Shown in pieces: positions 10,482 through 55,940 of a DNA stretch of 64,000 nt (the stretch's first letter is position 1; every line of letters begins with the position of its first letter). The stretch comes from an uncultured Eubacteriales bacterium (GTDB lineage Bacteria; Acidobacteriota; Aminicenantia; Aminicenantales; Aminicenantaceae): the NCBI GenBank assembly GCA_964410125.1, contig CAYPGQ010000005.1, forward strand, positions 21,395 to 85,394, given 5' to 3'. The notes below the pieces were generated by a model. It worked only from the letters and a program-made list of their open reading frames with translations. It was not told where the DNA came from and did not search any database. The translations under genes and the position numbers were made by a program.

Positions 10482-11663
10482 ATGATGTATAAAACTGCTC
10501 TCAAGGGAAATCTTGTTCTTAAAGATACCATCATTAACCAGGGATGCGTGGTTGTTGAAGGGCAAAAGATTTCTGGGATATTTGCTCCAACGGATCGATT
10601 CCAAGAGGAAGGAGTCAAATTTATCGATTATTGCAACGCATATATCGCACCGGGGTTTGTGGACCTGCACCTTCATGGGGCATTGGGGAAGGATGTGATG
10701 GATGTTCAGGAAGAAAGTGTACAAATGATCGCAGGACATCAAACTAACAATGGAGTTACAGGATTTCTGGGGTCCACGATGTCGGCTTCCCTGGACTTGG
10801 TTCTTGAGGCTATACGGGTGAGTAAAAATGCGGCAAAGGGTTCGTTGCCGTCTGAAATTTTGGGTGTCCATGTCGAAGGGCCTTTTGTGAGCATACAAAA
10901 AAAGGGTGCCCATTCGGCCTCCTTTATAAGAGGAATGACCGAAAAAGACTGTGAAAGACTGACAGATGCTGTAAACGGATTACATGTCATTCTTTCTCTA
11001 GCTCCCGAAGTGGAAGAAAACATGCGATTAATCGCAAAATTAAAAGCGCAAGGTTTTGTGGTGGCTATCGGACATACAAATGCTACCTATGATCAGGCTT
11101 TGGAGAGCTTTGCAAAAGGCGTGAGCCATGCTACCCATCTGTACAATGCCATGAGCGGATTCAACCACAGAGAGCCGGGGGTTGTCGGGGCAGTTCTGGA
11201 TTCCGATGATATCACCGCAGAGCTCATCGCCGATGGCGTCCATGTTCATCCCGCAGCCTTGCGTTTGGCTGTTGCCAGGAAAGGCCCAGAGAGAATCTGT
11301 TTGGTTACCGACTCGATGATGGCCACAGGTGTGGGAGATGGTGTTTATACTTGGGGTGAGGAAGAAATAGAAGTTCAAGGGAGCAGAGCGACGATTCGAG
11401 GAAGCGGAATTTTGGCAGGAAGTGTTTTGACCTTGAATGCAGCCATCAAAAACATGATCGGTTGGACCGGTGTAACCATAAATCAAGCCATAAATATGGC
11501 ATCCTTCAATCCTGCCTGTGTTCTCGGCATGGAAGATGAAATCGGGAGTATCCAAATCGGCAAACTTGCCAACCTTGTTGTGTTGGATAAAAATTTCCAG
11601 ATCGTGGATACGATACTGAGAGGAAAATCTACTTTGAGGAAAGGAAGCAGAAATGATGTATAA
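10482..11663 (+). CDS. nagA: N-acetylglucosamine-6-phosphate deacetylase
   Basis: Amidohydrolase metal motif GFVDLHLHG, a downstream HxH segment and Asp motifs. Length 393 aa. Confidence 0.85.
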   Translation: MMYKTALKGNLVLKDTIINQGCVVVEGQKISGIFAPTDRFQEEGVKFIDYCNAYIAPGFVDLHLHGALGKDVMDVQEESVQMIAGHQTNNGVTGFLGSTMSASLDLVLEAIRVSKNAAKGSLPSEILGVHVEGPFVSIQKKGAHSASFIRGMTEKDCERLTDAVNGLHVILSLAPEVEENMRLIAKLKAQGFVVAIGHTNATYDQALESFAKGVSHATHLYNAMSGFNHREPGVVGAVLDSDDITAELIADGVHVHPAALRLAVARKGPERICLVTDSMMATGVGDGVYTWGEEEIEVQGSRATIRGSGILAGSVLTLNAAIKNMIGWTGVTINQAINMASFNPACVLGMEDEIGSIQIGKLANLVVLDKNFQIVDTILRGKSTLRKGSRNDV

Positions 11664-14310
11664 ACCTATGAATTATGGGGCCTTTTTTCTTGTGTGTTTC
11701 AGCCTGTGTTTTATGACACTTTGCATGGGGAAAAAGATTCCTTCCCAAGACCGGTCCAAATTGCATTTGATGCCATGGCCCGCACACATGATCGTTGAAT
11801 CCGGAAAACTTCGTTTGAACTCCGGTTTTAGGGTCATTTGGCAAGGTTACGAGGAGCCGCGGTTGTCAAGAGCTGTGGACCGATTCGGTCACCAGTTTAA
11901 GGAGGTGACCGGTATTCCCCAATCTTCGATGATCGAGCCGGATGAAGCTGCCTTTTCTCTTGCCATTCACTGCGAGGGACCTGGTGAAGATGTCCAATCC
12001 ATAAGAGAAGAGGAGTCCTACACCCTTCGTGTAAGCTTCTCTGAGGTCGTTTTAAAAGCACCCACGCCGGTCGGTGTTTTGAGAGGGCTGGTGACACTTT
12101 TTCAACTCATCGAAAAGGGTAATGAGGGCTATTATATTCCGGCTGTCTGGATACAGGATGAGCCTCGTTTTCCATGGAGAGGATTACTGATCGATGTCTG
12201 CCGGCACTGGATACCGATGGAGGTTATCAAACGGAACCTGGACGGTATGGCGGCTGTGAAGCTCAATGTTTTGCACTGGCACCTCTCCGAGGATCAGGGA
12301 TTCCGTGTGGAATGCAAGAGCTTTCCCAAACTCCATGAAATGGGATCGGACGGATTATATTACACACAGAAACAGGTGCGCGAAATATTGGATTATGCCC
12401 GGGACCGCGGGATCCGGATAGTGCCAGAATTTGACATGCCCGGACACACGACAGCCTGGTTTATCGGGTATCCAGAGTTAGCCTGCACCCCCGGTCCTTT
12501 CGAGATCGGCCGTACCTGGGGAGTGCAAAATCCGTGTATGGATCCCACACGAGAAGAAACCTACATGTTCCTCGATACTTTCATCGGAGAAATGGCAGCG
12601 CTTTTTCCCGATGCCTATTTCCACATTGGCGGTGATGAGGTAAACGGAATAACTTGGGACAGCAATCCCGATATTATAGCTTTTAAAAAACAGAAGGGTA
12701 TGCAGGACAATCATGATTTGCAGGCCTATTTCAACAAAAGAATCCTGGCTATCGTTCAAAAACACGACAAAAAGATGATTGGATGGGATGAGATCTTCCA
12801 TCCTGATCTTCCCAGGGATGTGGTAGTGCACAGCTGGCGGGGTCCAAAATCGTTAGCTCAAACGGCCCGCGTGGGCTACATGGGAATCCTCTCTAATGGA
12901 TATTATATGGATTATATCCTGTCGGCCGCACATCATTATCGAGTTGATCCTCTCGGTGGCGATGCGGCTGAGCTGACAGAGGAAGAAAAGACCCGCATTT
13001 TGGGAGGAGAGGCATGCATGTGGGGAGAGTTTGTCGTGCCCGAGACAATAGATTCACGGATTTGGCCAAGAACAGCAGCAATTGCCGAGAGATTCTGGTC
13101 CCCTCAAGGTGTCAACGACGTGGAGGATATGTATCGCAGGTTAGAAAAGTTGAATTCAATACTGGATATGTTTGGGCTAAAACACCGGAATTACTATCCA
13201 GTGATGTTGAAGCGCGTGGCAGGGGAGCATCCTATTGATGCACTCAAAGTTCTGGCGGAGATCGTGGAACCGGTGAAGTATTACACACGGCCGAGAACGC
13301 GTGCTTATACCCAAATGACACCTCTCAATCGGTTGGTGGATGCGGCTCGTCCTGAAAGCCATAAGGGACGAAAGTTTGCAAACATGGTGGAGAAATTTCT
13401 GGCTGATACTCCAAGCTACAAAGTCAAAAACAAAACGATCCAAGAGTGGTTGGTCGAATGGCGAAACAACCATGAGGTCTTAAAACCAGTATTGGAAGAT
13501 TCCCCTTTGCTGGAAGAGATCATCCCACTCTCAGAGGATGTGGCTGCTCTAGCAGATGCCGGACTCCAGGCTATGGATTATCTGGAGGAAGGTCAGCAAG
13601 CGCCTCTCTCCTGGCTGGATGACGTGGTATCCTTATTGAGCCGTCCGAAAAAACCAGAGTACGAGCTTGTTGTTAAAATTGTGCCGGCCATCCAAGATCT
13701 GGTCCATGCTGTCCGGCCTCCATTGGTCAATGAAGACTTCGAGGATGGGGAGGCTCAGGGTTGGGAGCCGAATATTCCGGGAAACTGGAAAGTCGGCGGG
13801 GAATCGGGGACCCATTGCTACCAGCTTCAAGATCCAGGAACTCAGGGAAAGGTGAGAGCCCCCACATCGTGGTCTGTACTGAAAGATTTTGATATTTCCT
13901 GTTTTATTTTTACCGGGCGTCTCAGATGTAAAGCGGGTAGAGATAATCCGCATAGAGATATGGTCGTCATCTTTCATTACCAAGATCCCACGCATTTTTA
14001 TTATGTCCACTTCTCGGCCGTCAGTGATGAGGCCCACAATATAATCGGCCTTGTGAATGGCAAAGACCGGGTGAAGATCAATCATGAACCGCCAGGAGAA
14101 TCTGTCGCCAGACTGACAGACATGCAATTTCACGAGTTCAAAGTTACCTGTAATGCAGAGACCGGCGAAATCAAAGCATATTTGGACGACATGAGAATAC
14201 CGATCTTAACGGCGGTGGACACGACGTTAGGACATGGGTTGGTTGGATTGGGATCGTTCGATGACATCGGGAGTTTTGACGACATCAAGCTTTGGGGAAA
14301 AAAGGAGTAA
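11653..14310 (+). CDS. Secreted GH20 beta-N-acetylhexosaminidase with a C-terminal accessory domain
   Basis: Signal peptide. GH20 catalytic motifs LHWHLSEDQGFRVE and HIGGDEV. An extra C-terminal domain of about 250 aa follows. Confidence 0.8.
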   Translation: MMYKPMNYGAFFLVCFSLCFMTLCMGKKIPSQDRSKLHLMPWPAHMIVESGKLRLNSGFRVIWQGYEEPRLSRAVDRFGHQFKEVTGIPQSSMIEPDEAAFSLAIHCEGPGEDVQSIREEESYTLRVSFSEVVLKAPTPVGVLRGLVTLFQLIEKGNEGYYIPAVWIQDEPRFPWRGLLIDVCRHWIPMEVIKRNLDGMAAVKLNVLHWHLSEDQGFRVECKSFPKLHEMGSDGLYYTQKQVREILDYARDRGIRIVPEFDMPGHTTAWFIGYPELACTPGPFEIGRTWGVQNPCMDPTREETYMFLDTFIGEMAALFPDAYFHIGGDEVNGITWDSNPDIIAFKKQKGMQDNHDLQAYFNKRILAIVQKHDKKMIGWDEIFHPDLPRDVVVHSWRGPKSLAQTARVGYMGILSNGYYMDYILSAAHHYRVDPLGGDAAELTEEEKTRILGGEACMWGEFVVPETIDSRIWPRTAAIAERFWSPQGVNDVEDMYRRLEKLNSILDMFGLKHRNYYPVMLKRVAGEHPIDALKVLAEIVEPVKYYTRPRTRAYTQMTPLNRLVDAARPESHKGRKFANMVEKFLADTPSYKVKNKTIQEWLVEWRNNHEVLKPVLEDSPLLEEIIPLSEDVAALADAGLQAMDYLEEGQQAPLSWLDDVVSLLSRPKKPEYELVVKIVPAIQDLVHAVRPPLVNEDFEDGEAQGWEPNIPGNWKVGGESGTHCYQLQDPGTQGKVRAPTSWSVLKDFDISCFIFTGRLRCKAGRDNPHRDMVVIFHYQDPTHFYYVHFSAVSDEAHNIIGLVNGKDRVKINHEPPGESVARLTDMQFHEFKVTCNAETGEIKAYLDDMRIPILTAVDTTLGHGLVGLGSFDDIGSFDDIKLWGKKE

Positions 14311-14314
14311 TCTC

Positions 14315-15307
14315 ATGAATAGCAAACCGATCCTTAGACGCGAGTTTTTGAAAAAATGCGCAGTGGGTACCGCCGCGATAGGAATGATATCTGCAGGAAA
14401 ATTATTCTCTGGACGACCGGAATTACTCTACGATGCAAAAGGACTGCCCACGGTTATTCACGGAAAGACAGGAGCCAGGGTTCCGCGTTTAGCTGTGGGC
14501 TGCGGAAGCCGGTTTTGTGCTGTCGAGGACCCAGAGAAAAGCCAGGCGCTTCTTAACTATGCCTTGGACAGCGGATTCTATTATTGGGATACTTCCCATA
14601 ACTATGTTTACAATGGTGTTGTGAGTGAAGAGCGGCTCGGCCTTGTGCTGAAACACAGGAGGAAGGAAGTCTTTTTAGCCACCAAGGTTGGCAACCGAAC
14701 TTACGATGGAGCTATGCGTAATATCGAAGAGAGCCTAAAGCGTCTCAATACCGATCACCTGGAAATTCTCCAGATCCACAGCATCCTGTCCCTCGATGAT
14801 GTGGATAAAATAGGGGCGAAAGAAGGTGTCTTCCGTGCTGTCCAAAAAATGAAAGATGAGAAAGTCACGAAGTTCATCGGCTTTTCAGGTCATAGCAATG
14901 CCGATGCAATGGCTGCCACGGCCAAACGTTTTGATTTCGATACCATGCTGATCGCATTGAACCATTATGCGGAGAGAAAAGGGGATATGGAAAATTTTGC
15001 TATCCCTCGGGCGGCAGAGAAAAAAATGGGAATAATCGTGATGAAGGTGATCCGTCCTCGGGAAAATATCAAAGGTCTAAAAGCCGAGGATCTGATTCGA
15101 TATGCTTTGAGCCTCAAGAAACCTCACGTGGCTGTTATCGGGACGGATAGCCTGGAAGTCGTGAAAAAAAACCGGGAACTGCTGAGGAATTTTAGCTCGA
15201 TGAGTCCGGAAGAAATGGAGAAGATAAAAGGGGCCCTCGAGCCCTTTTTTGCCGGAAACGAAATGCCTTGGATGCAGCCAGGCTACACCGATGGGATAAG
15301 CATTTGA
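14315..15307 (+). CDS. Aldo/keto reductase with a Tat-type signal peptide
   Basis: ATG at 14315 preceded by aaaggag. Twin-arginine-like N-terminus RREFLKKCAVGTAAIGM. AKR fold motifs are present. The listed upstream start at 14234 overlaps the GH20 gene and is unlikely. Confidence 0.7.
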   Translation: MNSKPILRREFLKKCAVGTAAIGMISAGKLFSGRPELLYDAKGLPTVIHGKTGARVPRLAVGCGSRFCAVEDPEKSQALLNYALDSGFYYWDTSHNYVYNGVVSEERLGLVLKHRRKEVFLATKVGNRTYDGAMRNIEESLKRLNTDHLEILQIHSILSLDDVDKIGAKEGVFRAVQKMKDEKVTKFIGFSGHSNADAMAATAKRFDFDTMLIALNHYAERKGDMENFAIPRAAEKKMGIIVMKVIRPRENIKGLKAEDLIRYALSLKKPHVAVIGTDSLEVVKKNRELLRNFSSMSPEEMEKIKGALEPFFAGNEMPWMQPGYTDGISI

Positions 15308-16416
15308 GGGAGAATTTCATAAGCCGTCTGTCCTCCCTGGATGCATTCCGTGGCATTACCATTGCAGGTATGATACTGGTAAACAATCCAGGGAGCTGGC
15401 AGCATGTGTACTCGCCCCTTCGTCATGCCGAGTGGCACGGCTGGACACTCACTGATCTTATTTTCCCTTTTTTCCTGTTCATTGTCGGCGTTTCCGTTTC
15501 TCTTGCTCTTTCGAAAAGAATGGAGAGAGCGGACAGCCCTTTTTCTCTATACACAAAGATATTCCGAAGAAGCCTCATCATTTTTGCTCTCGGGATTGCG
15601 CTTCATTTGCTATTTCGGTTTGATTTTGTGCACCTCCGGATTCCGGGCGTCCTGCAACGCATTGCCATCTGCTATCTTGTCTCGGCACTGATTTTTTCGA
15701 AGGTGGGGATCAAAGGTAGAGTCGCGATCATTTTTTTTCTTCTGATCGGCTATTATTGGGTGATGAAACTTATTCCTGTACCAGGATATGGAGCAGGAGT
15801 GTGGGATTATCAGGGAAACCTCTGCGGGCATATCGATACAAAACTTCTGGGAGGACACCTGTACAAACTCCAATTCGACCCGGAAGGGATCCTCAGCACT
15901 TTTCCTGCCATTGCAACCACTTTGTTTGGAACCCTTGCAGGGGACTGGCTCCGAACCTCTAAAAATGTGCTCCAGAAATCGGGAGCGCTTATAGCTGTTG
16001 GGATCATGCTGACAGTTTCCGGGCTGCTTCTTCATCCGCTTTTTCCAATAAATAAACAGCTATGGACAAGCTCTTATGTCCTTTTTGCAGCCGGAGCGGC
16101 TTTGATTCTTTTAGGGTTATGTTTGGGGCTGATGGACGGTTTTGGGGCGAAAAAATGGGCTTATCCCCTTCTTGTTCTGGGCACAAATGCGATATTTGTT
16201 TATGTTGCTTCAACGGTTATGGTGAAGTTGCTGCTTGTGATAAAGGTTTCGACGAACAAAGGGGCAATCGCTCTCTATGCATACATCTACAATCATCTGT
16301 TGGTGCCGTTGGCTGGCCATCTTAACGGGTCCCTTCTTTTTCCTTTCTTGCTCCTTTCCCTCTGGGTTCTTATCATGATTCCTTTATACCGAAAAAAAAT
16401 ATTTATCAAAATTTAG
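15268..16416 (+). CDS. Heparan-alpha-glucosaminide N-acetyltransferase-like (DUF1624) membrane acyltransferase
   Basis: Conserved N-terminal SLDAFRG...MILVNNPG signature followed by multiple TM helices. The start is ambiguous: ATG at 15268 overlaps the AKR gene, and there is an alternative TTG at 15304. Confidence 0.6.
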   Translation: MDAARLHRWDKHLRENFISRLSSLDAFRGITIAGMILVNNPGSWQHVYSPLRHAEWHGWTLTDLIFPFFLFIVGVSVSLALSKRMERADSPFSLYTKIFRRSLIIFALGIALHLLFRFDFVHLRIPGVLQRIAICYLVSALIFSKVGIKGRVAIIFFLLIGYYWVMKLIPVPGYGAGVWDYQGNLCGHIDTKLLGGHLYKLQFDPEGILSTFPAIATTLFGTLAGDWLRTSKNVLQKSGALIAVGIMLTVSGLLLHPLFPINKQLWTSSYVLFAAGAALILLGLCLGLMDGFGAKKWAYPLLVLGTNAIFVYVASTVMVKLLLVIKVSTNKGAIALYAYIYNHLLVPLAGHLNGSLLFPFLLLSLWVLIMIPLYRKKIFIKI

Positions 16417-16431
16417 CCTGAATTATTTACG
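16417..16431. repeat. Short copy of the repeat-family terminal motif (CCTGAATTATTTACG)
   Basis: Lies directly after the stop of the HGSNAT-like gene. Related solo copies occur at 25122..25136, 25324..25334 (inverted), 30949..30963 and 63538..63552. Confidence 0.4.
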
Positions 16432-16638
16432 AGTTTAGACCCTCTACGTTCGACCATCACAGTACTCTCGCGGGTGGGCCGGATTGGTTCGCCAATTCCG
16501 AATTTTAAAGAGGTGATCCAGGAGCCCGGTGAAGATGGAACCGGACCCGACAAAGTCGGCTTCCCTCGAAGGACGATTCGTGAATGCTAGATCCTCAATG
16601 GTGCTCCGGACATGCCTGATGGGAGAGAACCGTTCAGG

Positions 16639-16782
16639 CTAATCTTGGTCGGGCGGTTTCGTGAGGTCGCGGAGCATGTCCACGATATTGCTTGCGCCTC
16701 CGATTATGACGATAATCACCAGCAGAGAGTAGCCTGAAAGAGTAAAAATTAGAACAGCTTTCCATAACAGTTCCCAATTCAT
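16639..16782 (-). CDS. Small (47 aa) hydrophobic protein translationally coupled to the symporter
   Basis: Its ATG overlaps the symporter stop as ATGA. It encodes MNWELLWKAVLIFTLSGYSLLVIIVIIGGASNIVDMLRDLTKPPDQD with one TM helix. It is below the 60-aa cutoff of the ORF track. Confidence 0.35.
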   Translation of the reverse strand: MNWELLWKAVLIFTLSGYSLLVIIVIIGGASNIVDMLRDLTKPPDQD

Positions 16783-18296
16783 CTCTTTACCTCCACTAGT
16801 TTGGTTTTATCGGGGAATATCAGGGATCCGAGGATCATCCCAAGGAATGCGATCAAGAATGTCATAACACCGATAAACTTATCGCTCAGGTAGAAGGGCA
16901 CGTTTTCCCCCGTTGTCCAAGGCCCGATTCCCAGGATGGCCAACAGGCCGGCATACAGCGCGATTTTTGCTCCGGTTTTGCTGGCTTTTTTCCAGTACAA
17001 ACCTGCAGTCACGACGGTAAAAGCACCCGCCAGGTAAATGGTGCCGGTGACTGCCATGTAATTCCAGAGAGATACGGGTGCTTCGAACCACAACCCCCAA
17101 ATAAGCAAAAAGATGCCAATAGCAACGATACAAATGCGTGTGATCAGGAGGCGGCTTTTGTCCGATAGGTTGTCTTTTTTCAAGGGAGCGACGATGTCCT
17201 GAGTGATCACAGAGCTCCAGCTGAGCAGGTAACTGTCATGGGTGGACATAAAAGCCGCAAACATGCCGGCCGCAATCAGTCCCAAAAAGCCGCTGGGAAG
17301 TACTTTTGCTATAAAGATAGGCATGCCGAATTGGCTGTTCAGGGCATCTGGTCCTTGAAAGGCCGCCAATAGCTTGGGTGATTGGGAGATGAAGATGAAA
17401 GCGCAAATGCCCCAGAGCATCGGGATGACCCGGCGGGCCAGATAAGAAACAGAGCTCCAAGCGTAGAGTTGTTTAGCCACTTTAGGTGTTTTGGCTGACA
17501 GGGCTCGGAGGGTCCCGGACTGCCAGAGAGCTCCGGCCGAAAAGGTAAGGATAACCATAAAAATCACATACAGGCTTCCAAATCCTGATCCTTCACTGAT
17601 GGGATTGAACCAAGATGCGCTGTCGACCGAAGGCGGCGCTTTGAAGAGATTTGCCCAGCCAACCTTGGAAATGGCGAACCAAGATCCGATGAGCATCCCT
17701 ATGGACAAGACGACGAATTGCATGAAATCGTTCAGAACCACAGAGACCATTCCGCCCAAAACCGTATAGACAAGCACCATAATCAACATGGCAGACATAA
17801 AAAGCTTCAATCCCGCCGGGTTGCTGTATCCGGTAACACCCATCATGAACCTGGCGCCTGCCTGAAGAAATAGACCCATGTTCAAGATCCCTCCCAACGC
17901 CAGGATGATACCCCCAACGATCCTCACATTTCTCCCAAAACGCATCTCATAAAACTCCGGGATGGTCATAACCCGCAGCTGCCGTAGCTTATAAACGATA
18001 AAACCCGTCAGTCCTATGGCCAGGATACAGAAGGTTTCGATGATCCCCACATGGAAGGCCGAAAGGCCGTGTTTAAATCCCAGCTCGGCGTTGTACATGA
18101 CAGTTACAAGCCCCAGCTCTGTTCCCGTAAGGGTTGCGATGGCTATGAAAAGCTTGAGCGAGCGGCCTGCCAGGATAAAATCACTCAATTGCCGGATGTA
18201 TTTTTTGACGATTATCCCGATCACGACAGGGATACAGATATAAACGCAGACGATCACCCAGTCGAGTGTTTTGAAATTTGTGGCAAAAACATCCAT
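16779..18296 (-). CDS. Sodium:solute symporter family (SSS) transporter
   Basis: 505-aa polytopic membrane protein with SSF-like topology and motifs. Confidence 0.75.
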   Translation of the reverse strand: MDVFATNFKTLDWVIVCVYICIPVVIGIIVKKYIRQLSDFILAGRSLKLFIAIATLTGTELGLVTVMYNAELGFKHGLSAFHVGIIETFCILAIGLTGFIVYKLRQLRVMTIPEFYEMRFGRNVRIVGGIILALGGILNMGLFLQAGARFMMGVTGYSNPAGLKLFMSAMLIMVLVYTVLGGMVSVVLNDFMQFVVLSIGMLIGSWFAISKVGWANLFKAPPSVDSASWFNPISEGSGFGSLYVIFMVILTFSAGALWQSGTLRALSAKTPKVAKQLYAWSSVSYLARRVIPMLWGICAFIFISQSPKLLAAFQGPDALNSQFGMPIFIAKVLPSGFLGLIAAGMFAAFMSTHDSYLLSWSSVITQDIVAPLKKDNLSDKSRLLITRICIVAIGIFLLIWGLWFEAPVSLWNYMAVTGTIYLAGAFTVVTAGLYWKKASKTGAKIALYAGLLAILGIGPWTTGENVPFYLSDKFIGVMTFLIAFLGMILGSLIFPDKTKLVEVKR

Positions 18297-18722
18297 CTAT
18301 ACAGGCCTCCTCTTATTAGTCTTCCCAAATCTTTCTGATCCAGGGAATAGTGGCTTTGAATGGTTAAGAAAAGTATCAAAATAAAAAATAAAAACCATAT
18401 CTTGGATAATATCATTGTTTTCATAATCGCAGGCAACAGCAGAATTTTACAACAACGGACTCTTTTTTCAAATGAATTTTTGAGGACAGATGACCTGTAA
18501 TCGATACACACTCCAAGTTCTTGCTTCCTGAAAAAGGGAGAGGGTAGTTTGGCATGTTTTTTGCTTGTTCATCTAAAGTTAAATTGTCGACATTGAATGA
18601 CCGGATGGAATAGATTAACATATTTGTATTGTCTAATAAGTATTGCAACTTTTTTGCGACAATAAAAGTTATTAAACATGTAGGATTTATAGGGAATAGG
18701 ACAACGTAAACTTTGGAGGAAA

Positions 18723-21700
18723 ATGATGTTTGCTTGTTACATTAAAAGGTATTTATTGATATTCACAATTATCTATATAGGAACCGTGTCTGCGGCCTCT
18801 CTTGTTCATGCCCAATATTTTGGACGAAACAAGGTGCAGTATGACAAATTCGATTTCAAAATTCTGAAGACACAACACTTCGATGTTTATTTTTATCCTG
18901 AGATGGAAGAATCGGCTCAACTGTCCGCTCGGATGGCTGAGCGTTGGTATGCTCGTCTCTCACGGATTTTTAACCATAAGCTCAAAGGCCGCCAACCCCT
19001 GATCTTATACGCTAGCTCTTCCCACTTCCAGCAAACGACCACTATCTCTGGGGCCATCGGGGAAGGAACAGGAGGAGTGACCGAGTCTTTTAAAAGACGT
19101 ATCATTCTTCCGGTTGGAGGCTCCCTAGCAGCAACCGATCGCGTGATCGGTCATGAGCTTGTCCATGCTTTCCAGTATGATCTCACTTCCCAAAATCGTT
19201 CGAGTTATGCTGGAGCTAGTTCAGGGCTAGCGCGTATTCCGTTGTGGTTTATTGAAGGTCTGGCCGAATACCTGTCCATCGGTTCGATCGATCCCAACAC
19301 AGCCATGTGGATGCGGGATGTGACGCAGAGGAAGGAACTTCCCACCATTAAAAAAATGGACGATCCTTACAAGTATTTTCCCTACAGGTATGGTCAGTCA
19401 CTCTGGGCCTACATCACTGGGAAGTATGGGGATGAAGCAGTGGCATCCTTGATGAAACAAGTGAGCCGCGTCGGAGAGCTGGAGTCTGCAATGCAAAAGG
19501 TTTTGAATGTGAACTTCGAGCAGTTGACAAAGGAATGGCACCAGGCCATGAATGAAACATATAATCCGATCGCAGAGAAAACCCGGCTTGTCGAAAAAAA
19601 TAGCCGTCCTCTTTTTAAGGCAACAAAGGAAAATAGACTGAATGTTTCGCCTACTCTCAGCCCGGATGGAAGCCAGATCGTTTTCCTTTCAAGCCGAGAT
19701 CTGTTTTCGATCGATATGTATTTGGCCGATGCAAAGACGGGAAAAATCATTCGCCGATTGGTAAAAACAGCTACAGACCCGCATTTTGATAGTTTGCAGT
19801 TCCTGAATTCCTCTGGCTCTTGGGATTCCAAGGGAGAGCGGTTCGTTTTTGGCGGTATAACCAAAAGTGAGCCTGTTCTTGTCGTAGTCAACACAAAAAC
19901 CGGCAAAAGAGAGAAAGAGGTCGTTTTCAAGGAATTGGGGGAGATATTGAACCCGACCTGGTCTCCGGATGGGCGTTTCGTCGCCTTTTCTGCTCTTGAT
20001 GGCGGCTTGTCGGATATTTTTTTGTTAGACCTTGAAACCGAAGAGTTGAAAAAGCTGACAGACGATCCCTTTTCCGACCTGTATCCTTCTTGGTCTCCAG
20101 ATGGCCGCACCATTGCCTTTGTCACAGACCGCTTTTCCAGTGACCTCTCGATCCTTAACATCGGGGACTTTCAGATGGCCTTGTTGGATCCCGACACGGG
20201 CGATATCGAGAAGATCCGAGGATTTCTCGGGGCGAAAAATATCAATCCTCAGTGGGCTCCTGATTCGAAAAGCCTTTTCTTTATGTCCGATCGTAATGGC
20301 ATTTCCAATGTGTACAGAGTCGATCTTGTCAGCGAGGAAATATCCCAGGTAACAAATCTCTTCACAGGTGTAAGCGGCATCATGGCCCAAAGTCCCGCCA
20401 TTTCGATTGCGCAAGAGACCGGCCAGATGGCTTTCAGCGTCTATTCGGAGAATAATTACAGCATCTACGCCATCGATTCTTATGAACTCCTTTCCGGGGA
20501 AGAGCCTAATGGTGATTTTGGAGAGATCTTGCCGTCCCTGCTCCCGCCAAGAAAAAAAGGTGAAGGAGAGGTGATCGCTCTCCTCAACAACCCGCTGTAT
20601 GGACTACCTGAAGAAGCCGATTTTGAAATTTCCGATTACAAGCCGAAACTGGCTCTGGATTATGTCAGTCCTGGCCAGATGGCTGTGGGTACAGACCGAT
20701 TCGGGATGTATGCTGGTGGGGGGATCATGCTGAATTTCAGCGACATGCTCGGCTATCACAACTTGTTCACCATGGCGCAGGTCAACAGCCGAGTCGAAGA
20801 TTCGACTCTGTTGGCTGGGTACCAGAACACGAGGAGCAGATTGAACTGGGGAGCTGTTGTGCAGCGGATTCCTTATGTGTATGGCGGGGTTTCTATGGGA
20901 TATGGGGACTTTTTGGGACAGACGGCTCTTCTCGAACAGGAATACATCTTTCGCCAGGTCAATTATCAAGCATCGATTTTTGCCTTCTATCCTTTCAATA
21001 AATCCCGCCGATTCGAACTGTCTGCGGGCTACCGGTTGATCGATTATCAACAAGAAGTCCGCACGCGGGCTTACACGATCGATGGGTTCTTTTTGGACCG
21101 AATCAAGCAGGAATTGGATGCTCCGGATAGTCTGTATTACGGATTTTTCACGGCAGCTTTTGTGTATGACAGCTCCTTCTTTGGTGCTACGGCACCAATC
21201 CTTGGGCAGAGCTACCGTATCGAATTTACGCCCTATTTTGGAGGCAATCTTAATTTCTCTTCTCTGCTCGCCGATTACCGGCGCTACCTTATGCCCGTAA
21301 GGCCGTTCACGCTGGCTTTCCGTATTATGCATTATGGTCGTTATGGGAATAACGCCACAGACGAGCGTTTTTATCCCTTGTTTTTAGGTTATGAAACTCT
21401 GCTCCGGGGATACAATTCATCCTCGTTCGGTTTCGACGAAAATGACGTTTATGCGCAGCTGTTCGGAAACAAGCTGATGATAGCCAATGTAGAACTTCGT
21501 TTCCCGCTTTTTGGGGTTCTTGGTTTAGGAAGAGGATATTACGGTATCCTTCCGGTGGATTTTGTGGCCTTTTACGATGCCGGGATAGCTTGGGGGTATG
21601 AAGTCGAAGGTGACGCCGAGAGTAAACCCTTCTTTTTGGGCGGCAATCGCAGACCACTTTCGAGTGTCGGCATAGGACTCAGGATGAACTTGATGGGATT

Positions 21701-21788
21701 CCTGATCATGGGATTCAATGCCGTGAAACCTTTCAACAGACCGAACAAAAACTGGGTGTTCCAGTTCACGATCATGCCAGGATTCTAA
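18723..21788 (+). CDS. Fusion protein: signal peptide, gluzincin metallopeptidase domain, PD40/TolB-like beta-propeller, and Omp85 (BamA/surface antigen) beta-barrel
   Basis: HELVHAFQYD (HExxH) followed by FIEGLAEY (a Glu that could be the third ligand). Repeated SPDG / SWSPDGR / QWAPDS PD40 motifs. A C-terminal barrel with the Omp85 loop-6 LLRGY motif and a terminal aromatic residue (...IMPGF). Confidence 0.55.
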   Translation: MMFACYIKRYLLIFTIIYIGTVSAASLVHAQYFGRNKVQYDKFDFKILKTQHFDVYFYPEMEESAQLSARMAERWYARLSRIFNHKLKGRQPLILYASSSHFQQTTTISGAIGEGTGGVTESFKRRIILPVGGSLAATDRVIGHELVHAFQYDLTSQNRSSYAGASSGLARIPLWFIEGLAEYLSIGSIDPNTAMWMRDVTQRKELPTIKKMDDPYKYFPYRYGQSLWAYITGKYGDEAVASLMKQVSRVGELESAMQKVLNVNFEQLTKEWHQAMNETYNPIAEKTRLVEKNSRPLFKATKENRLNVSPTLSPDGSQIVFLSSRDLFSIDMYLADAKTGKIIRRLVKTATDPHFDSLQFLNSSGSWDSKGERFVFGGITKSEPVLVVVNTKTGKREKEVVFKELGEILNPTWSPDGRFVAFSALDGGLSDIFLLDLETEELKKLTDDPFSDLYPSWSPDGRTIAFVTDRFSSDLSILNIGDFQMALLDPDTGDIEKIRGFLGAKNINPQWAPDSKSLFFMSDRNGISNVYRVDLVSEEISQVTNLFTGVSGIMAQSPAISIAQETGQMAFSVYSENNYSIYAIDSYELLSGEEPNGDFGEILPSLLPPRKKGEGEVIALLNNPLYGLPEEADFEISDYKPKLALDYVSPGQMAVGTDRFGMYAGGGIMLNFSDMLGYHNLFTMAQVNSRVEDSTLLAGYQNTRSRLNWGAVVQRIPYVYGGVSMGYGDFLGQTALLEQEYIFRQVNYQASIFAFYPFNKSRRFELSAGYRLIDYQQEVRTRAYTIDGFFLDRIKQELDAPDSLYYGFFTAAFVYDSSFFGATAPILGQSYRIEFTPYFGGNLNFSSLLADYRRYLMPVRPFTLAFRIMHYGRYGNNATDERFYPLFLGYETLLRGYNSSSFGFDENDVYAQLFGNKLMIANVELRFPLFGVLGLGRGYYGILPVDFVAFYDAGIAWGYEVEGDAESKPFFLGGNRRPLSSVGIGLRMNLMGFLIMGFNAVKPFNRPNKNWVFQFTIMPGF

Positions 21789-22755: not shown

Positions 22756-23898
22756 TTGGGAATAGATATGAAAGATATCCATCCTCTCCTAGATGAAGAA
22801 AGCCAGAAAAAGGCCCGCTTTTATGAGAAAGAGAAACGTCTCCTTGGCTTTGCTAGCCTGATTCTATCTCTTGCCTTTCTCCTTATCTTTTATTTCAGTG
22901 GGATTAGTTCTTTACTGGCTGACCTCAATATTGCCCATTCCATCATAGGGACATTCCTCGTTTATGTGGTTACCTTTTATTCGACCATGACGATCTTCGG
23001 TTTTCCTTTGGAATTCTTTAGTGGCTATATTCATGAGCACAAATGGGACTTTTCCAACCACACGGTGAAGAGCTGGTTGTGGGAAAAGATCAAGTCCTTT
23101 TTTATAGGGTTGATCATTTTTATTCTCATATTGGGATTGTTACTTTGGATCATGGCCATAACTCCAAAATGGTGGTGGTTAGTGGCAGCATTGGTGATGG
23201 CCTTTGTGAGTGTAGTTTTTGCAATCCTTTTCCCGATTGTCATTGCTCCAATTTTTAATAAATACACGCCAATCCAAAATGAGAAATTAACCAAAGTCCT
23301 AGATAAAATGTTCGTGCGTGGAGGACTTAAGAGCAGTGGGATTTTCAAGGAGGACATGAGTCGTCAAACCAAAAAGGAGAATGCATTTCTGGCCGGATTG
23401 GGCAAAACGAGACGGATTGTATTGGGGGATAATTTGCTAGAAAATATGACGATTCACGAGATAGAATCGATCATTGCCCACGAAGTCGGTCACTATAAGT
23501 ATCAACATATCTGGAAGAATATCGGGATTGGAACACTGCAACAATTGCTGATTTTCTTTGTCATCAATTTGATATTAAAATGGGCGTTCCCTCACTTCCT
23601 ATCCTCAACACAAGGGAATCTTTCCCTTTTTCCTATATTTGCCATTTTATTGGGAGGATTTTCAGGATTCCTGTTTGCTCCGCTGAAAAATTGCCTTTCT
23701 CGAAATTTCGAAAAAGAGGCAGACAGATATGCACTGGCCAATATAAAGAATAACAGGGCATTCATGACAGCTCTCGCAGGATTGGCGAACCGAAACCTAT
23801 CCAATGCTTATCCAGAATGGTGGATGAAATCCCTGTATTATTCTCATCCGCCAATCGGCGAGCGGTTAAAAATGGCAGAGAAAAGAGATATAAAATAG
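22756..23898 (+). CDS. M48-family (Ste24/HtpX-like) zinc metalloprotease
   Basis: N-terminal TM helices followed by HEVGHYKYQH (HExxH) and a downstream Glu motif. The architecture is Ste24-like. Confidence 0.8.
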   Translation: MGIDMKDIHPLLDEESQKKARFYEKEKRLLGFASLILSLAFLLIFYFSGISSLLADLNIAHSIIGTFLVYVVTFYSTMTIFGFPLEFFSGYIHEHKWDFSNHTVKSWLWEKIKSFFIGLIIFILILGLLLWIMAITPKWWWLVAALVMAFVSVVFAILFPIVIAPIFNKYTPIQNEKLTKVLDKMFVRGGLKSSGIFKEDMSRQTKKENAFLAGLGKTRRIVLGDNLLENMTIHEIESIIAHEVGHYKYQHIWKNIGIGTLQQLLIFFVINLILKWAFPHFLSSTQGNLSLFPIFAILLGGFSGFLFAPLKNCLSRNFEKEADRYALANIKNNRAFMTALAGLANRNLSNAYPEWWMKSLYYSHPPIGERLKMAEKRDIK

Positions 23899-24210: not shown

Positions 24211-25092
24211 TTGAAAAGCCAAATGAAAAAAATTATTGGGCTTTCCATACTATTTTTATTTGTGTTGGGTCTGCATTCAGGCAGGCTTTATTCTTCCTCA
24301 AAAAAATTGAAAATTATCGTCGACAAAGCTTCTATCCATCTAGATCCGGATAAAAGAAGCACTGTGGTTGCCATGTTGAATAAAGGCTCTCTTGTGTCTC
24401 TTGGCAGTGAGCGTAAATTCCGTACAAATTGGAACTATGTTTATTTCACTTCAGAAAAATCTGGCCGGACCAAGTCTGGATACATCCTTGATATATTGGT
24501 TGAAAAACTCTTCGAAGTCACAAAAAAATCCACCATCCAACGAGAAGGGGATGAAACAGGGAACCAAGCAGGATCAAAAAAGAATTTCAGGAATACTCGA
24601 TGGGGAATGAACAAAGCGCAGGTTGTGCGGATCGAGGGAAGTCCAAATCACCGTGAAAATTCAGGCGGGTTGGATATTATTCAATATCCCCAGAAGATTT
24701 TGAACATGGATTGTATGATAGGGTACGTGTTTGCTTATAATAAATTAGCCAAGGCCAAATACAGTTTCCTTGCCAATTACGAGGACAAAAATCAGTATAT
24801 CCACAATTATAAAAAAATAAAGGATATCTTAATACAAAAATATGGAAAATCCGAAGCAGAAAAGGTTCTATGGCAGGATAAACAATATCAAAATAATCGT
24901 TCAAACTGGGGATTGGCTCTCAGCCTAGGTCATCTCGAGTTCAGTTCTCTTTGGAAGGATTCGGAAACAGAAATTCAACTCCGCGTGTATGGAGGAAGAA
25001 ATAGGGTTTTTCTTGTGGTGTTATACTCTGGTCTCGAATTCTTGGATCTGGCAAAAAAAGTGAGAGCACAAAGTCAACTTTCTATCTGGTAA
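24211..25092 (+). CDS. Secreted hypothetical protein
   Basis: ORF with an N-terminal signal peptide (IIGLSILFLFVLGL). No recognisable catalytic motifs. Confidence 0.4.
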   Translation: MKSQMKKIIGLSILFLFVLGLHSGRLYSSSKKLKIIVDKASIHLDPDKRSTVVAMLNKGSLVSLGSERKFRTNWNYVYFTSEKSGRTKSGYILDILVEKLFEVTKKSTIQREGDETGNQAGSKKNFRNTRWGMNKAQVVRIEGSPNHRENSGGLDIIQYPQKILNMDCMIGYVFAYNKLAKAKYSFLANYEDKNQYIHNYKKIKDILIQKYGKSEAEKVLWQDKQYQNNRSNWGLALSLGHLEFSSLWKDSETEIQLRVYGGRNRVFLVVLYSGLEFLDLAKKVRAQSQLSIW

Positions 25093-28566: not shown

Positions 28567-30948
28567 ATGCTCAAAATCAGAAAAGGAACTCTTCTTTTTG
28601 CTCTGGAAGTCATAGCCATCTCTTCGTATTTCGCGTATGAAATAGCTCAAAATCAGCTGGATTCAAAACTCTCTCCGACCTTTACTTTTTTTCTATTTTT
28701 CCTGCTTTTATCTGCTGGCTTAGGAGGAATTTTATATTCTCTATTGAAATTTTACTCCCAAAAAATGGCATTATGGCTAGATGTGAGTGCTCAAGAGGTC
28801 AGGCGTTTTACCATCCTTTCTTTTGCTCCTTTTTTTTTTCTTGTGCTGGTGTTCATTCAGAAATTTGTCTTTCTCAATGAAATCAGCCATATTGTTTTGG
28901 TCGTCTCGACCCTTGGCTTCATTTATCTCCATTTGTTTTTTCTCTACCGCTTAAATAGGCAGCAACTAGAGATCTTTCCGAAGCTAAGCCGTGCAAAAAT
29001 CGCTCTTCTCTGTTTTGCCTTTGCAGGTATTGTTTATATCTTGGCAGCTTCTGGTATCTTGTTTACTCCATATCCCATTACTGGGGATGAACCCCATTAC
29101 CTCTTAATTACAAAAAGCCTTATATCCGATGGGGATGTCAATCTTTGGAACAACTACCAGAATAAAGATTATCTGGAATTTTATCCGGGGCGGCTTGACT
29201 CTCATACAACAACAGGTAAAAGAGGTTCCCAGTTCCAATACTCAAGGCATATGCCTGGATTATCTGTTCTGCTTTTGCCTGCTTATGTGGTAGGAACCAG
29301 AATTGGCAAAGTATCGGCATCCGTTTTAAGTAAACCGATGTCTGAAAAGGGCGTTCTGATTCTGGCCATCAGGTTTTTTTTATGTGTCTTAGCCGCGGCT
29401 TTAAGCGGAATGTTCTATTTAGTCGTGGATACCCTGCTGAAAAATCGCAAAGTATCTCTCATCACATGGGGCCTTTTTGGTTTCACGACTCCTCTTTTGT
29501 TCTATTCTTTCCAGATCTATCCCGAAGTAGTCGTCGCGCTCATTTCCATCTCTCTCATGTATCTTATTATTATCAAGTCCGATTGGAGGTTGTCCCGTTT
29601 ATTGCTTGCAGGAATCGGGATCGGGATTTTGCCTTGGTTCGGAATAAAGTATATGGTCATTTCAGCCGGATGTGGTCTTCTGTTTATATTCTCTTTTCTC
29701 AGGCAAAAGCAAAAAATAAAAAATTATTTCTATCTAGCGCTTCCAATTTTCCTTTCGGCTGTTTTTTTTCTATTTTTTCTATGGTCCCTGTATGGGAAAC
29801 TATCTCCCGTGGTTGTTTACAAAGGAACGACTGGAGATGGCAGTGTCTCATTTAATGCTTTATATCATTATAACCCGATCGAGTTCTTGAGGTGTTGGAT
29901 TGGATATTTGTTCGATCAACGAGTCGGCCTTTTCATTTATTCCCCTATTTTTGTTCTGTTTTTTCCAGGTTTGATCCTTTGGTTTAGGAAAAATAAAAAA
30001 GAAGCTTTGTCTTTGTTTTTTCCACTGATCCTGTACTGGGCTTTTTGTTCCCTGAGTTATTATTGGGGAGGCTACTGCCCCCCGGGAAGGACCTTGCTAC
30101 CGGTTTTGTGGATTATGTGTTTGTTCATGGGAGGGGCCATGTATTGGTCTGGGAAGAAAAAGCCTGTTGTCATCATGCATTTATTGGTTGGTCTTTCCTT
30201 TCTGAACACATATCTTCTAGCGCAAAACACACGCCTCCTCTACCACGAAAACCTTTCCTTTCATTGGGCAGAGTCTGGAAAAGTCAGCAATGTGTTGCAT
30301 TCGCTGAGCAATGCCTTCATCGATTTTACGAAGTTCGTTCCTTCGCTGTCCAGCCAGGAAGGAATCACTTGGATCCCGCTATTTTTTTGGATTCTTTTGT
30401 CTCTTTTGATAGGATTTTTCTTCATTAGAAGGGTGCGGAAATCCAATGGACGGATTTTGTGTCAAAAGATAATGGTTCCAATGGGAGCGGTTTTTCTCGT
30501 ATGTGCAGCTGTTGTACTTTATTCTTTTCTAGACATTCGCCTCGATGAACAAAAGTCTTTCCAAACAAAGGATGTTCATGTTTATTTCCAGGATGAAAAT
30601 ACATATGGCCATGAAATGAATGGTTTTTGGACAAAGGGAGCCAGCAAAGCAGAGATTATTGTAAAAAGCCCGAGAAAAGCATCAAGTATCGACTTGAGAC
30701 TGACATGTTCTTCCAGGGGAAAAACGATGGTGCGAGTAGGGAATGCGATTAGAATTTTGGGCAAAAAAAATAACGGAGAATCTGAGATAATGGTTTCCTT
30801 TCCCAAACCTGTGGGATTTGCATGGGGAGGGAATCATTTATATGCGATAAAAATCAGAGGGGAGAGCAGTTTTGTGCCCCGCAAGCGGGATAAGAAGTCA
30901 ACGGATAGCAGGTTTTTGGGGGTATTTGTTAGAGTTGAAGTTAATTAA
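28567..30948 (+). CDS. Large polytopic membrane protein, GT-C-fold glycosyltransferase-like
   Basis: More than 12 predicted TM helices. An acidic TGDEPHY motif in an early extracytoplasmic loop, as in GT-C enzymes (ArnT/PMT-like). A soluble C-terminal domain. It is adjacent to GT-A and GT4 genes. Confidence 0.4.
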   Translation: MLKIRKGTLLFALEVIAISSYFAYEIAQNQLDSKLSPTFTFFLFFLLLSAGLGGILYSLLKFYSQKMALWLDVSAQEVRRFTILSFAPFFFLVLVFIQKFVFLNEISHIVLVVSTLGFIYLHLFFLYRLNRQQLEIFPKLSRAKIALLCFAFAGIVYILAASGILFTPYPITGDEPHYLLITKSLISDGDVNLWNNYQNKDYLEFYPGRLDSHTTTGKRGSQFQYSRHMPGLSVLLLPAYVVGTRIGKVSASVLSKPMSEKGVLILAIRFFLCVLAAALSGMFYLVVDTLLKNRKVSLITWGLFGFTTPLLFYSFQIYPEVVVALISISLMYLIIIKSDWRLSRLLLAGIGIGILPWFGIKYMVISAGCGLLFIFSFLRQKQKIKNYFYLALPIFLSAVFFLFFLWSLYGKLSPVVVYKGTTGDGSVSFNALYHYNPIEFLRCWIGYLFDQRVGLFIYSPIFVLFFPGLILWFRKNKKEALSLFFPLILYWAFCSLSYYWGGYCPPGRTLLPVLWIMCLFMGGAMYWSGKKKPVVIMHLLVGLSFLNTYLLAQNTRLLYHENLSFHWAESGKVSNVLHSLSNAFIDFTKFVPSLSSQEGITWIPLFFWILLSLLIGFFFIRRVRKSNGRILCQKIMVPMGAVFLVCAAVVLYSFLDIRLDEQKSFQTKDVHVYFQDENTYGHEMNGFWTKGASKAEIIVKSPRKASSIDLRLTCSSRGKTMVRVGNAIRILGKKNNGESEIMVSFPKPVGFAWGGNHLYAIKIRGESSFVPRKRDKKSTDSRFLGVFVRVEVN

Positions 30949-39283: not shown

Positions 39284-40439
39284 CGCTTGTCACCTTGCAT
39301 CGGGGTATGGATAATATAAATTCCGTTTCCGTTGCATTTAACTTAATCTCTTTGTTTAATCTTTCTCTTATCGTTTTAATCATTCTGGGAACACCACTAC
39401 CGATATCTGTTACCATCCCAATTTTCAAAAGTAGATTATAAATAGTTGGATTTCGAAGGACATGACAGGATATCTTCATGCTATCTATAGTAACTGTATT
39501 AGGTAACCTTCCTGGCGTTCTGATTTCTATTCTGTCCTCAAATATGAATAATCTTATCGGAGCATTAATTGTATAATCTCGATGAGCTATCGCATTTACA
39601 ATCCCTTCTCTTAAAACTTTTTCAGGAATTTCAGGGTATAATTCTGATTCAAAACCTTTTATTTTGTGTTCTTCCTTTATATACAACTTCAGAAATTTTA
39701 ATGAGTTCTCAAGTATATCCGGAATTTTTGCTTCTAAATCTTTTTTATCAGATGGAGGAATAGAAACATCTATACCAGGTATGTAAGCGGCTATAATCTT
39801 TGCGTATGGAATAAATTGCTGAGGGTTTTTTCCAAAAAATAATATCCCAGCAATTGTAAGTTTTTTCTTATTTGTAATAACTTTAAGATTTTTGAGATAA
39901 TTCTCAATTAAACTTTCTTCTGGAGAAATATCTAAATATTTCTCCAGAAAATATATAAAGTAATCCATGTTAAGGCTGCCAAGTGGGGTTTTAGAGATAG
40001 GGGTCTCGTCATAATAAATGCTTCCGCTTGTTTGATAAAGCCTCCTAACTTCTAGCCATGAGGCTTGCCTACATCTATTCCCTGACTTAATATAATAAAG
40101 ACCACTTTTTGTTCGATAAGGTCTTTGCTCCCCTTTAGGAATATTGATAATTAAAACAATTTCACCATCCATATCCACTGTTTCTGGGAGAATACTAATA
40201 GGAGATTCACATCTATTGAATGCAACATCATCAATCTTTCTTACTGCTTCATCCAAATCTTCAACTCCTACAATATCACCTGAGTTGCCAATACCAATTA
40301 TTAATTGCCCACCATCTGTATTTGCAAAACAGACAATTGATTTTGCGAGAGTTTCATTATCAGGTAATCTTTCCTTGAACTCGGTATGTAAATTTTCACC
40401 TTTTAATATTTTTTCCTGTAGTTCCAATGTATCCATCAA
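39270..40439 (-). CDS. AlbA_2 / Schlafen-like divergent-AAA protein with a C-terminal HATPase-like domain
   Basis: N-terminal NLHTEFKERLPDNE...IVCFANTDGGQLIIGI is typical of the AlbA_2 domain. The C-terminal domain resembles HATPase_c_4. Its start overlaps the upstream gene by 4 nt and its end overlaps res. Confidence 0.55.
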   Translation of the reverse strand: MMDTLELQEKILKGENLHTEFKERLPDNETLAKSIVCFANTDGGQLIIGIGNSGDIVGVEDLDEAVRKIDDVAFNRCESPISILPETVDMDGEIVLIINIPKGEQRPYRTKSGLYYIKSGNRCRQASWLEVRRLYQTSGSIYYDETPISKTPLGSLNMDYFIYFLEKYLDISPEESLIENYLKNLKVITNKKKLTIAGILFFGKNPQQFIPYAKIIAAYIPGIDVSIPPSDKKDLEAKIPDILENSLKFLKLYIKEEHKIKGFESELYPEIPEKVLREGIVNAIAHRDYTINAPIRLFIFEDRIEIRTPGRLPNTVTIDSMKISCHVLRNPTIYNLLLKIGMVTDIGSGVPRMIKTIRERLNKEIKLNATETEFILSIPRCKVTSDEIN

Positions 40440-55742: not shown

Positions 55743-55754
55743 CGTCTACCTTCA

Positions 55755-55940
55755 TCATAGCGTTTTTTCAAGATTCTCAAGTAGTTGTTCATAATCCTTT
55801 TTGATTTTATCTATTCGAGAGTTGAGCGTTGATTTTATCTGCTCAACTCCACCTTGTTCATAGGATTCGCATATTTCTTGCCAGAGATTTCTCAATTTCT
55901 CTTCTTTTATTTCTTTTTGAACTTTTTCTTTATAGGTCAT
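55755..55940 (-). CDS. Small (61 aa) charged coiled-coil protein
   Basis: Short ORF 12 nt upstream of the ATPase gene. Helical, K/E-rich. Confidence 0.3.
   Translation of the reverse strand: MTYKEKVQKEIKEEKLRNLWQEICESYEQGGVEQIKSTLNSRIDKIKKDYEQLLENLEKTL

Follow-up and report, generated by a model that had tools for sequence, protein, structure and literature searches.

Protein insertion and translocation are the best-known tasks of the Omp85 scaffold, as in BamA, TamA, TpsB, Toc75 and Sam50. Subfamilies in which this barrel is fused to an enzyme are, to our knowledge, widespread yet unstudied, with the exception of PlpD of Pseudomonas aeruginosa. Here we describe a gene for a fusion of this kind, located at positions 18723..21788 (+) of a 64,000-nucleotide stretch of contig CAYPGQ010000005.1, the whole of which is termed the window. 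Its predicted product combines a zincin protease domain, a PD40 propeller and an Omp85-type barrel and, judged by this architecture, is a member of the WD40-like Omp85 subfamily. On balance, we favor its being an outer-membrane-anchored, periplasm-facing zinc protease, with barrel, propeller and zincin acting together on unfolded polypeptides or oligopeptides.

BepA is a soluble periplasmic M48 zinc protease with a TPR domain that binds BamA non-covalently and acts on stalled outer-membrane proteins. The propeller of TolB binds proteins and peptides, and those of S9 peptidases and of the tricorn protease select or filter substrates. The Omp85/TpsB superfamily was split into ten bacterial subfamilies, one of them termed 'WD40-Omp85', by Heinz & Lithgow in 2014 (Front Microbiol 5:370, PMC4104836). 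Table S2 of that paper gives PF01103 together with PF07676 (PD40) repeats for this subfamily, while in Table S3 the best Phyre2 barrel matches of members were BamA/TamA (4k3b, 4c00), the best WD40 matches were TolB (2w8b, 2ivz) and the 'best aminopeptidase hit' was mostly an M1 gluzincin (1z5h, 4kxd, 4fgm, 3qnf) or a collagenase (4ar1); no POTRA domain is recorded in the member entries examined. For this subfamily, the main text treats the propeller only, as a BamA-BamB-like fusion. POTRA domains are typical of the superfamily rather than universal, the noNterm, Metallo and WD40-like Omp85 subfamilies being without them (PMC4104836). Since then, 'divergent WD40 and peptidase domains' have been ascribed to the WD40-like proteins (PMC11358297), which have also been termed 'not well characterized' (PMC11116518). 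Papers of 2024 still call the subfamily uncharacterised, and no functional study of it was found in the literature searched.

The protein described here resembles the members of this subfamily in that PD40 repeats with TolB as the best match precede an Omp85 barrel and a zincin domain lies N-terminal of the propeller. There is no difference in architecture, only a barrel that falls under the Pfam threshold in this copy, which belongs to a metagenome lineage with Candidatus Aminicenantes as its named relatives. With BamA and TamA, the protein shares the 16-stranded fold, the loop-6 (V/I)RG(Y/F) motif, the strand-13 (F/G)xDxG motif and an aromatic C-terminus. It is not one of these proteins proper, as there is no POTRA array and no BamA or TamA model of NCBIfam was matched at E ≤ 1; the zincin and propeller stand N-terminally instead, and BamA barrels are only 12-17% identical to the query barrel in fold alignments. 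PlpD likewise joins an Omp85 barrel to an N-terminal hydrolytic enzyme, but has a lipase (patatin) and one POTRA domain in place of a metalloprotease and a propeller. TolB shares the six-bladed PD40 propeller, but its N-terminal alpha/beta domain is absent here and the propeller is fused to a barrel and a protease. The likeness to BepA is a functional analogy only, since here a zincin of an unrelated family is covalently fused to its own Omp85 barrel. The tricorn protease with its M1 factors F2 and F3 shares the combination of a PD40-type propeller (Tricorn_N, Tricorn_2nd) with a gluzincin, but that system is cytosolic and archaeal, whereas the present protein is predicted to be an outer-membrane protein and lacks serine-protease and PDZ domains. 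Several WD40-like Omp85 members have tricorn-interacting factor F3 (1z5h) as their best zincin template in Table S3 (PMC4104836). As the subfamily has been catalogued since 2014, this locus adds little novelty, being one more member and offering no new principle; the interest lies in a large and strongly conserved family that has remained without an assigned function since that cataloguing.

Gene product and family

The open reading frame listing contained an ATG-started frame of 1021 residues occupying exactly 18723..21788 (+). Three features at the ends of this gene are as follows.

18715..18719 (+): Shine-Dalgarno sequence GGAGG, 3 nucleotides ahead of the ATG, read directly from the sequence
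18723..18812 (+): predicted signal peptide, residues 1-30, from sequence inspection
21783..21785 (+): C-terminal phenylalanine F1021; the end reads ...FQFTIMPGF, aromatic as in the beta-signals of outer-membrane proteins

Homologs were compared in a close alignment of 25 sequences at 59-88% identity (A1) and a diverse alignment of 37 representatives at 31-56% identity (A3), and motifs were counted with regular expressions in 239 full-length relatives, 118 of them close and 121 distant. The N-terminus reads MMFACYIKRYLLIFTIIYIGTVSAASLVHA followed by QYFGRNK, with Sec-type n-, h- and c-regions (K8/R9 in the n-region, the hydrophobic core LLIFTIIYIGTV and the c-region SLVHA) and predicted cleavage before Q31. 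The mature N-terminus AQYFGRNKVQY, starting at A30/Q31, is kept in all homologs of both alignments, and inspection of the N-terminus revealed no lipobox. At the other end, the last residue was F, W or Y in all 118 close relatives and in 115 of the 121 distant ones. The protein is therefore proposed to be a Sec-exported outer-membrane protein, the signal peptide and the C-terminal aromatic residue supporting export and membrane insertion.

A homolog search returned at least 8000 matches, the best 120 of which had nearly all a length of about 1020 residues and aligned colinearly with the query. When 1.84 billion cluster representatives were searched exhaustively with HMMER, 2201 proteins were detected at E ≤ 1e-30, a count of representatives at 50% identity; among the best 150 of these, most were about 1000 residues long and colinear from end to end, down to 32% identity. 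These numbers indicate that the arrangement is not due to chance. The phylogenetic distribution, which the initial annotation of this stretch had suggested following up, covers many phyla, with relatives encoded at at least 394 loci in GTDB species representatives. The best 80 of these loci were in records labeled as Candidatus Aminicenantes, Gemmatimonadota, Acidobacteriota (Vicinamibacterales, Thermoanaerobaculia), Ignavibacteria, Zixibacteria, KSB1 and Fibrobacter, as well as Bacteroidota/Rhodothermota (Nafulsella, Salinivenus, Rhodothermales, Balneolaceae). An identical protein, with the same neighboring genes, is present in the database record on 10 metagenome contigs, and the window contains no paralog of the gene.

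Database names within the family disagree. The best 120 matches (P0001-P0120) carry names such as 'Tol biopolymer transport system component', 'peptidase S9', 'PD40 domain-containing protein', 'peptidase MA family metallohydrolase' and 'BamA/TamA family outer membrane protein', each of which covers one domain. The first two of these names were rejected for the present protein, as they mirror the propeller only.

Zincin domain

The N-terminal domain of the mature protein and its conserved elements were located as follows.

18813..19592 (+): zincin domain (Peptidase_MA_2, gluzincin-type), approximately residues 31-290, from Pfam PF13485
19059..19085 (+): loop GEGTGGVTE, residues 113-121, upstream of HExxH, from alignment conservation
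19152..19166 (+): HELVH, residues 144-148, with H144 and H148 as two predicted zinc ligands and E145 as the predicted catalytic base
19254..19271 (+): EGLAEY, E178-Y183, with E178 as the presumed third zinc ligand

PF13485 (Peptidase_MA_2) scored 35.4 bits on residues 93-276, above its cut-off of 32.4, and was matched by all 25 members of the close alignment. Weaker matches in the zincin region were to BSP, M9 collagenase and DUF6055 in Pfam and to the flagellinolysin HExxH model in NCBIfam. Residues H144, E145, H148 and E178 were invariant in both alignments, and E182 was kept in at least 90% of sequences. We take E178 to be a zinc ligand by analogy with gluzincins, comparing it with the WLNEGFA element of M1 peptidases. 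The combined pattern HExxH…xEG, the conservation of which in homologs had been put forward as a check on the initial annotation, was found in 235 of the 239 full-length relatives, at identities reaching down to about 31%; of the four without it, at least two look like truncation or offset cases rather than true losses. As the catalytic residues are invariant across the family, the domain reads as an active gluzincin, and an inactive pseudo-protease was rejected on the same grounds.

The loop upstream of HExxH is also invariant or nearly invariant in the family. In the close alignment, G113, E114, G115, G117, G118, V119, T120 and E121 were all invariant, while in the diverse alignment G118 was invariant and T120 and E121 each reached at least 90%. 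Among the full-length relatives, 118/118 close and 93/121 distant ones carried a motif of the GG[VF]TE type. The loop had very low confidence in the full-length structure model (predicted local distance difference test score [pLDDT] of about 27). It may act as a flexible loop that binds substrate or serves as a lid, and its placement recalls the GxMEN loop of M1 peptidases.

An M1 aminopeptidase was also considered and was rejected because the H148-E178 spacing is 29 residues as opposed to 18, PF01433 was not matched and the GxMEN motif is missing.

PD40/TolB-like propeller

One feature was assigned between the zincin domain and the linker.

19605..20477 (+): PD40/TolB-like beta-propeller, residues 295-585, six repeats, from Pfam, PDB sequence matches and fold

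PD40 scored 81.6 bits over four stretches of this region. Five repeat starts were detected with a regular expression, at residues 309, 410, 454, 508 and 557, and a sixth repeat near residue 363 was read by eye. TolB chains were the best PDB sequence match (E = 2.1e-17) and TolB was also the top Foldseek match. The NCBIfam TolB model TIGR02800, however, matched at propeller positions only and scored 119.4 bits against a cut-off of 343, indicating that the propeller is TolB-like rather than TolB. A TolB ortholog was thus rejected, as was consistent with the zincin domain occupying the place where the N-terminal alpha/beta domain would be. Tricorn_N and Tricorn_2nd matches were present in the precomputed record and DPPIV_N also matched the propeller. 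These tricorn matches are at the level of the propeller only, and neither a PDZ nor a serine-peptidase domain was found by Pfam; hence, the protein is not a tricorn protease.

Linker and Omp85-type barrel

The C-terminal part of the protein was divided into the following features.

20478..20702 (+): linker of 75 residues (586-660), with LPPR (607-610), NPLYGLP (623-629) and two short strands before the barrel
20703..21785 (+): predicted Omp85-type beta-barrel, residues 661-1021, 16 long strands, from the AlphaFold2 model, Foldseek and PF01103 matches of homologs
21405..21413 (+): loop-6 motif R895-G896-Y897 (LRGY in the query; family consensus VRGY), from alignments and model
21492..21494 (+): E924 on strand 12, likely partner of the loop-6 arginine, invariant in both alignments
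21570..21584 (+): F950-Y-D952-A-G954, (F/G)xDxG lid-lock motif on strand 13, from alignment and model

In the close alignment, the linker columns L607, P608, P609, R610, N623, G627, L628 and P629 were invariant. No POTRA domain (PF07244) was detected on the whole protein at E ≤ 1 or on residues 601-1021 at E ≤ 10. Taken by themselves, the C-terminal 421 and 371 residues matched no Pfam family at E ≤ 10, nor did a barrel profile (A2) match any PDB sequence at that threshold. As the query barrel is unmatched in Pfam, the Omp85 assignment rests on homologs, motifs, a structure model and a fold search. Among the full-length homologs, 13/25 matched PF01103, the best score (39.9 bits, cut-off 24) being that of a protein 72% identical over its full length (P0039), which aligned to model positions 57-319 of 325. 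The query's own barrel has drifted under the detection level of the Pfam Omp85 model.

A fold search with the full-length model returned propeller proteins only among the 50 matches listed, and so was uninformative on the zincin and the barrel; hence, a separate model was needed for the latter. The AlphaFold2 model made for residues 631-1021 from an alignment of 53 sequences had a pLDDT of 94.0 and a predicted template modelling score (pTM) of 0.85. All 50 of the PDB matches listed by Foldseek for this model belonged to the Omp85 superfamily (49 BamA chains and one chain of a chloroplast TOC complex), with a best E value of 7.6e-10, a probability of 1.00 and template modelling (TM) scores of 0.5 to 0.6 among the matches listed. 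The secondary structure, read from the DSSP string rather than from coordinates, consists of 18 elements, namely 16 long strands and, ahead of strand 1 (model 31-43), two short ones that span 5 and 7 residues near the N-terminus (model 14-18 and 22-28). The model is thus consistent with a barrel of 16 membrane strands preceded by a short N-terminal hairpin-like element. No N-terminal plug helix was predicted in it.

The lid-lock of Omp85 proteins has two signature motifs, (V/I)RG(Y/F) at the tip of extracellular loop 6 and, on strand 13, (F/G)xDxG, which pairs with the loop-6 arginine (PMC7644211). In the model, with strand 31-43 counted as the first, LRGY lies in a 40-residue loop that joins barrel strands 11 and 12. 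R895 and G896 were invariant in the close alignment, and R895, G896 and Y897 were each present in at least 90% of the diverse one. E924 lies within the model strand 287-298, and an analogous strand-12 glutamate has been described for CdiB (PMC7644211). The (F/G)xDxG motif is on the 13th strand (model 315-327), with F950 and D952 invariant and G954 present in at least 90% of the diverse alignment, and was detected in 118/118 close and 107/121 distant relatives. Strands 14 to 16 follow, finishing with ...TIMPGF. As modelled, the lid-lock motifs are therefore in the canonical Omp85 register. A second RGY occurs within a GLGRGYYG element at residues 934-941 (21522-21545), which is conserved in the close alignment and lies in the predicted turn between strands 12 and 13. 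This element is easily mistaken for the loop-6 motif but is not that motif.

The initial annotation had described a single polypeptide with a signal peptide, a gluzincin-like HELVH…EGLAEY domain, about 300 residues of PD40 repeats and a barrel with the Omp85 loop-6 RGY and an aromatic C-terminus, in a BamA/TamA-like topology with the POTRA domains replaced by a protease and a propeller. Pfam, PDB sequence and fold evidence bore out this architecture, and the 16 strands which it had proposed looking for by structure prediction were present in the model. Its suggested hidden Markov model scan was borne out in part: Peptidase_MA_2 and PD40 were found, while PF01103 was missing from the query barrel, though present in the homologs noted above.

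Proposed function and alternatives

In all Omp85 proteins studied, now including PlpD, the N-terminal domains are periplasmic (PMC11116518). Of the two orientations that the initial annotation had allowed, surface- and periplasm-facing, the latter is by analogy the more probable one for the zincin and propeller of the present protein, and a zinc protease would therefore sit on the inner face of the outer membrane. We infer both proteolytic activity and the class of substrate. In the mechanism that we favor by a modest degree over the alternatives taken together, a 16-stranded BamA-type barrel with an intact lid-lock would anchor the zincin and propeller on the periplasmic side and keep the enzyme at the inner face of the membrane; the barrel may also engage unfolded beta-strand substrates at the seam of strands 1 and 16, as BamA does. 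The propeller would bind or filter substrates in the manner of the S9 and tricorn propellers, and the zincin would then cut unfolded polypeptides or oligopeptides at the inner face, the protein serving as an envelope quality-control protease for outer-membrane proteins or as a peptide-processing protease. The lid-lock triad (R895, D952 and E924) is kept as deeply as the catalytic site, which suggests that the barrel is more than an anchor. Furthermore, as the family is large and multi-phylum and retains both the protease site and the lid-lock, it almost certainly has a specific task at the outer membrane. When all of the flanking open reading frames of the 80 best loci were clustered, no neighbor was conserved across phyla, which fits an autonomous, self-contained machine.

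Several points weigh against this interpretation. A profile of the zincin family (A5) matched no PDB sequence at E ≤ 10, and the single zincin sequence gave one spurious match only (E = 1.3), so that solved structures do not place either the zincin or the barrel by sequence. These searches assign the zincin to no subfamily and do not tell an exo- from an endopeptidase. The query barrel did not match PF01103 even at E ≤ 10, nor was this family among its precomputed matches, and the strand count depends on how the two short elements of the DSSP string are read. The full-length model was only moderate (pLDDT of 68, pTM of 0.55) and does not fix where the active site lies with respect to propeller and barrel. 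Finally, the lid-lock motifs could serve the folding or stability of the barrel alone and not the handling of substrates.

Among the possible roles, degradation of unfolded envelope proteins, possibly of barrel proteins captured at the seam, ranks first, and a periplasmic oligopeptidase is a close second. In the latter case, the protein would cleave nutrient peptides, with the barrel as an anchor or passive pore, the propeller limiting access to short peptides, as in S9 peptidases or in tricorn with its M1 factors, and no link to outer-membrane protein biogenesis. The Tricorn_N, Tricorn_2nd and DPPIV_N matches of the propeller are in keeping with such a role, as are the M1 aminopeptidases, including F3 (1z5h), that are the best Phyre2 matches of subfamily members in Table S3 (PMC4104836). 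However, a mere anchor has no need of conserved lid-lock residues, no peptide transporter occurred as a conserved neighbor among 80 loci and the zincin differs from M1 peptidases in its 29-residue H148-E178 spacing and lack of a PF01433 match, so that we regard this role as possible but rather unlikely. Somewhat more doubtful again is a self-contained disposal machine, in which barrel proteins that have stalled or misfolded would be caught by their beta-signal at the seam of strands 1 and 16 and degraded on the spot by propeller and zincin. If this were its function, one polypeptide would do the work of the separate BAM and BepA/DegP of Proteobacteria, and the result would be a first function for any non-POTRA Omp85 subfamily and a use of the Omp85 seam for degradation.

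Surface display and a non-catalytic role in assembly are less likely than either protease role. In the case of surface display, the barrel would translocate its own zincin and propeller in a type Vd-like manner, as once proposed for PlpD, and the protease would serve extracellular nutrition. This option was raised for enzyme-bearing Omp85 proteins by Heinz & Lithgow (PMC4104836), and degradative and uptake genes lie nearby in the window, including those for a glycoside hydrolase family 20 (GH20) hexosaminidase and an SSF symporter. The PlpD precedent has, however, been overturned, as its patatin domain, long thought to be exported, is exclusively periplasmic (PMC11116518). A folded propeller of about 290 residues and a zincin of about 260 would also make a bulky cargo for a barrel of the BamA type with its loop-6 lid-lock retained, and the barrel is BamA-like, with no TpsB transporter among the 50 listed fold matches and no predicted plug helix; we consider surface display improbable. 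The remaining alternative, to which we assign slightly less weight still, is a non-proteolytic, BamA-BamB-like assembly factor for outer-membrane proteins, in which the propeller would dock and the zincin fold would bind or chaperone. While the barrel retains the signature motifs of assembly-competent Omp85 proteins and the propellers of TolB and BamB alike serve as interaction modules (PMC4104836), the near-complete invariance of all four catalytic zincin residues down to 31% identity is hard to explain without catalysis, and the propeller is of the PD40/TolB type, not the PQQ-type 8-bladed propeller of BamB. A periplasm-facing protease thus remains our preferred explanation. A function for the WD40-like Omp85 family would widen the picture of envelope proteostasis in non-proteobacterial diderms.

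Genomic neighborhood and other features of the window

The Omp85-fusion gene stands alone, with a divergent SSF symporter gene upstream and a convergent TauE exporter gene downstream, followed by an M48 peptidase gene (+). The divergent neighbor had been named as a sodium:solute symporter in the initial annotation, and a PF00474 match agreed with this. In the 80 loci, the only recurring neighbors were generic two-component regulators, present in 20 loci at variable positions.

Mla-like genes recur in some loci, mostly in those titled Gemmatimonadota or Longimicrobiales, but do not amount to a family-wide partner. In several of the loci L013, L039, L044, L051, L056, L067, L075 and L079, the homolog is followed directly by an MCE/MlaD-like gene on the other strand, and an MlaF-like ABC ATPase gene adjoins it in L013, L044, L075 and L079. 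The MCE and MlaF labels come from reading of the sequences and not from hidden Markov models, and this arrangement is lineage-specific and absent from the window.

The M48 gene (22756-23898, +), two genes downstream of the Omp85-fusion gene, encodes a membrane zinc peptidase (Ste24/HtpX-like) with a five-helix N-terminal domain. The same arrangement was repeated on three listed metagenome contigs bearing the identical protein, and the adjacency was not among the recurring neighbor clusters in the diverse loci inspected. Just upstream, the region 11653-18296 contains genes for a GH20 beta-hexosaminidase, an aldo/keto reductase, an HGSNAT/DUF5009-type acyltransferase and the SSF symporter, plausibly an amino-sugar utilisation cluster. 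Two other frames, at 28567-30948 (+) and 24211-25092 (+), encode proteins of 793 and 293 residues with no Pfam match at E ≤ 0.001.

Further along the window, the region 36737-45198 (-) has a G+C content of 0.33-0.40, compared to about 0.48 in the first 22 kb. It encodes a ResIII helicase-type restriction subunit, a Schlafen AlbA_2/HATPase_c_4 protein, an N6/N4 DNA methylase and a 907-residue frame without a Pfam match, and looks like a restriction-modification or defence island, possibly one that was horizontally acquired. The region 53565-58236 (-), also of low G+C content, encodes an AAA_23/SMC_N-type ATPase (725 residues) and an HNH-endonuclease protein (492 residues) and may be a second defence module. 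A 603-residue protein with PQQ_2 (BamB-type) beta-propeller repeats is encoded at 60923-62734 (+) in the same window.

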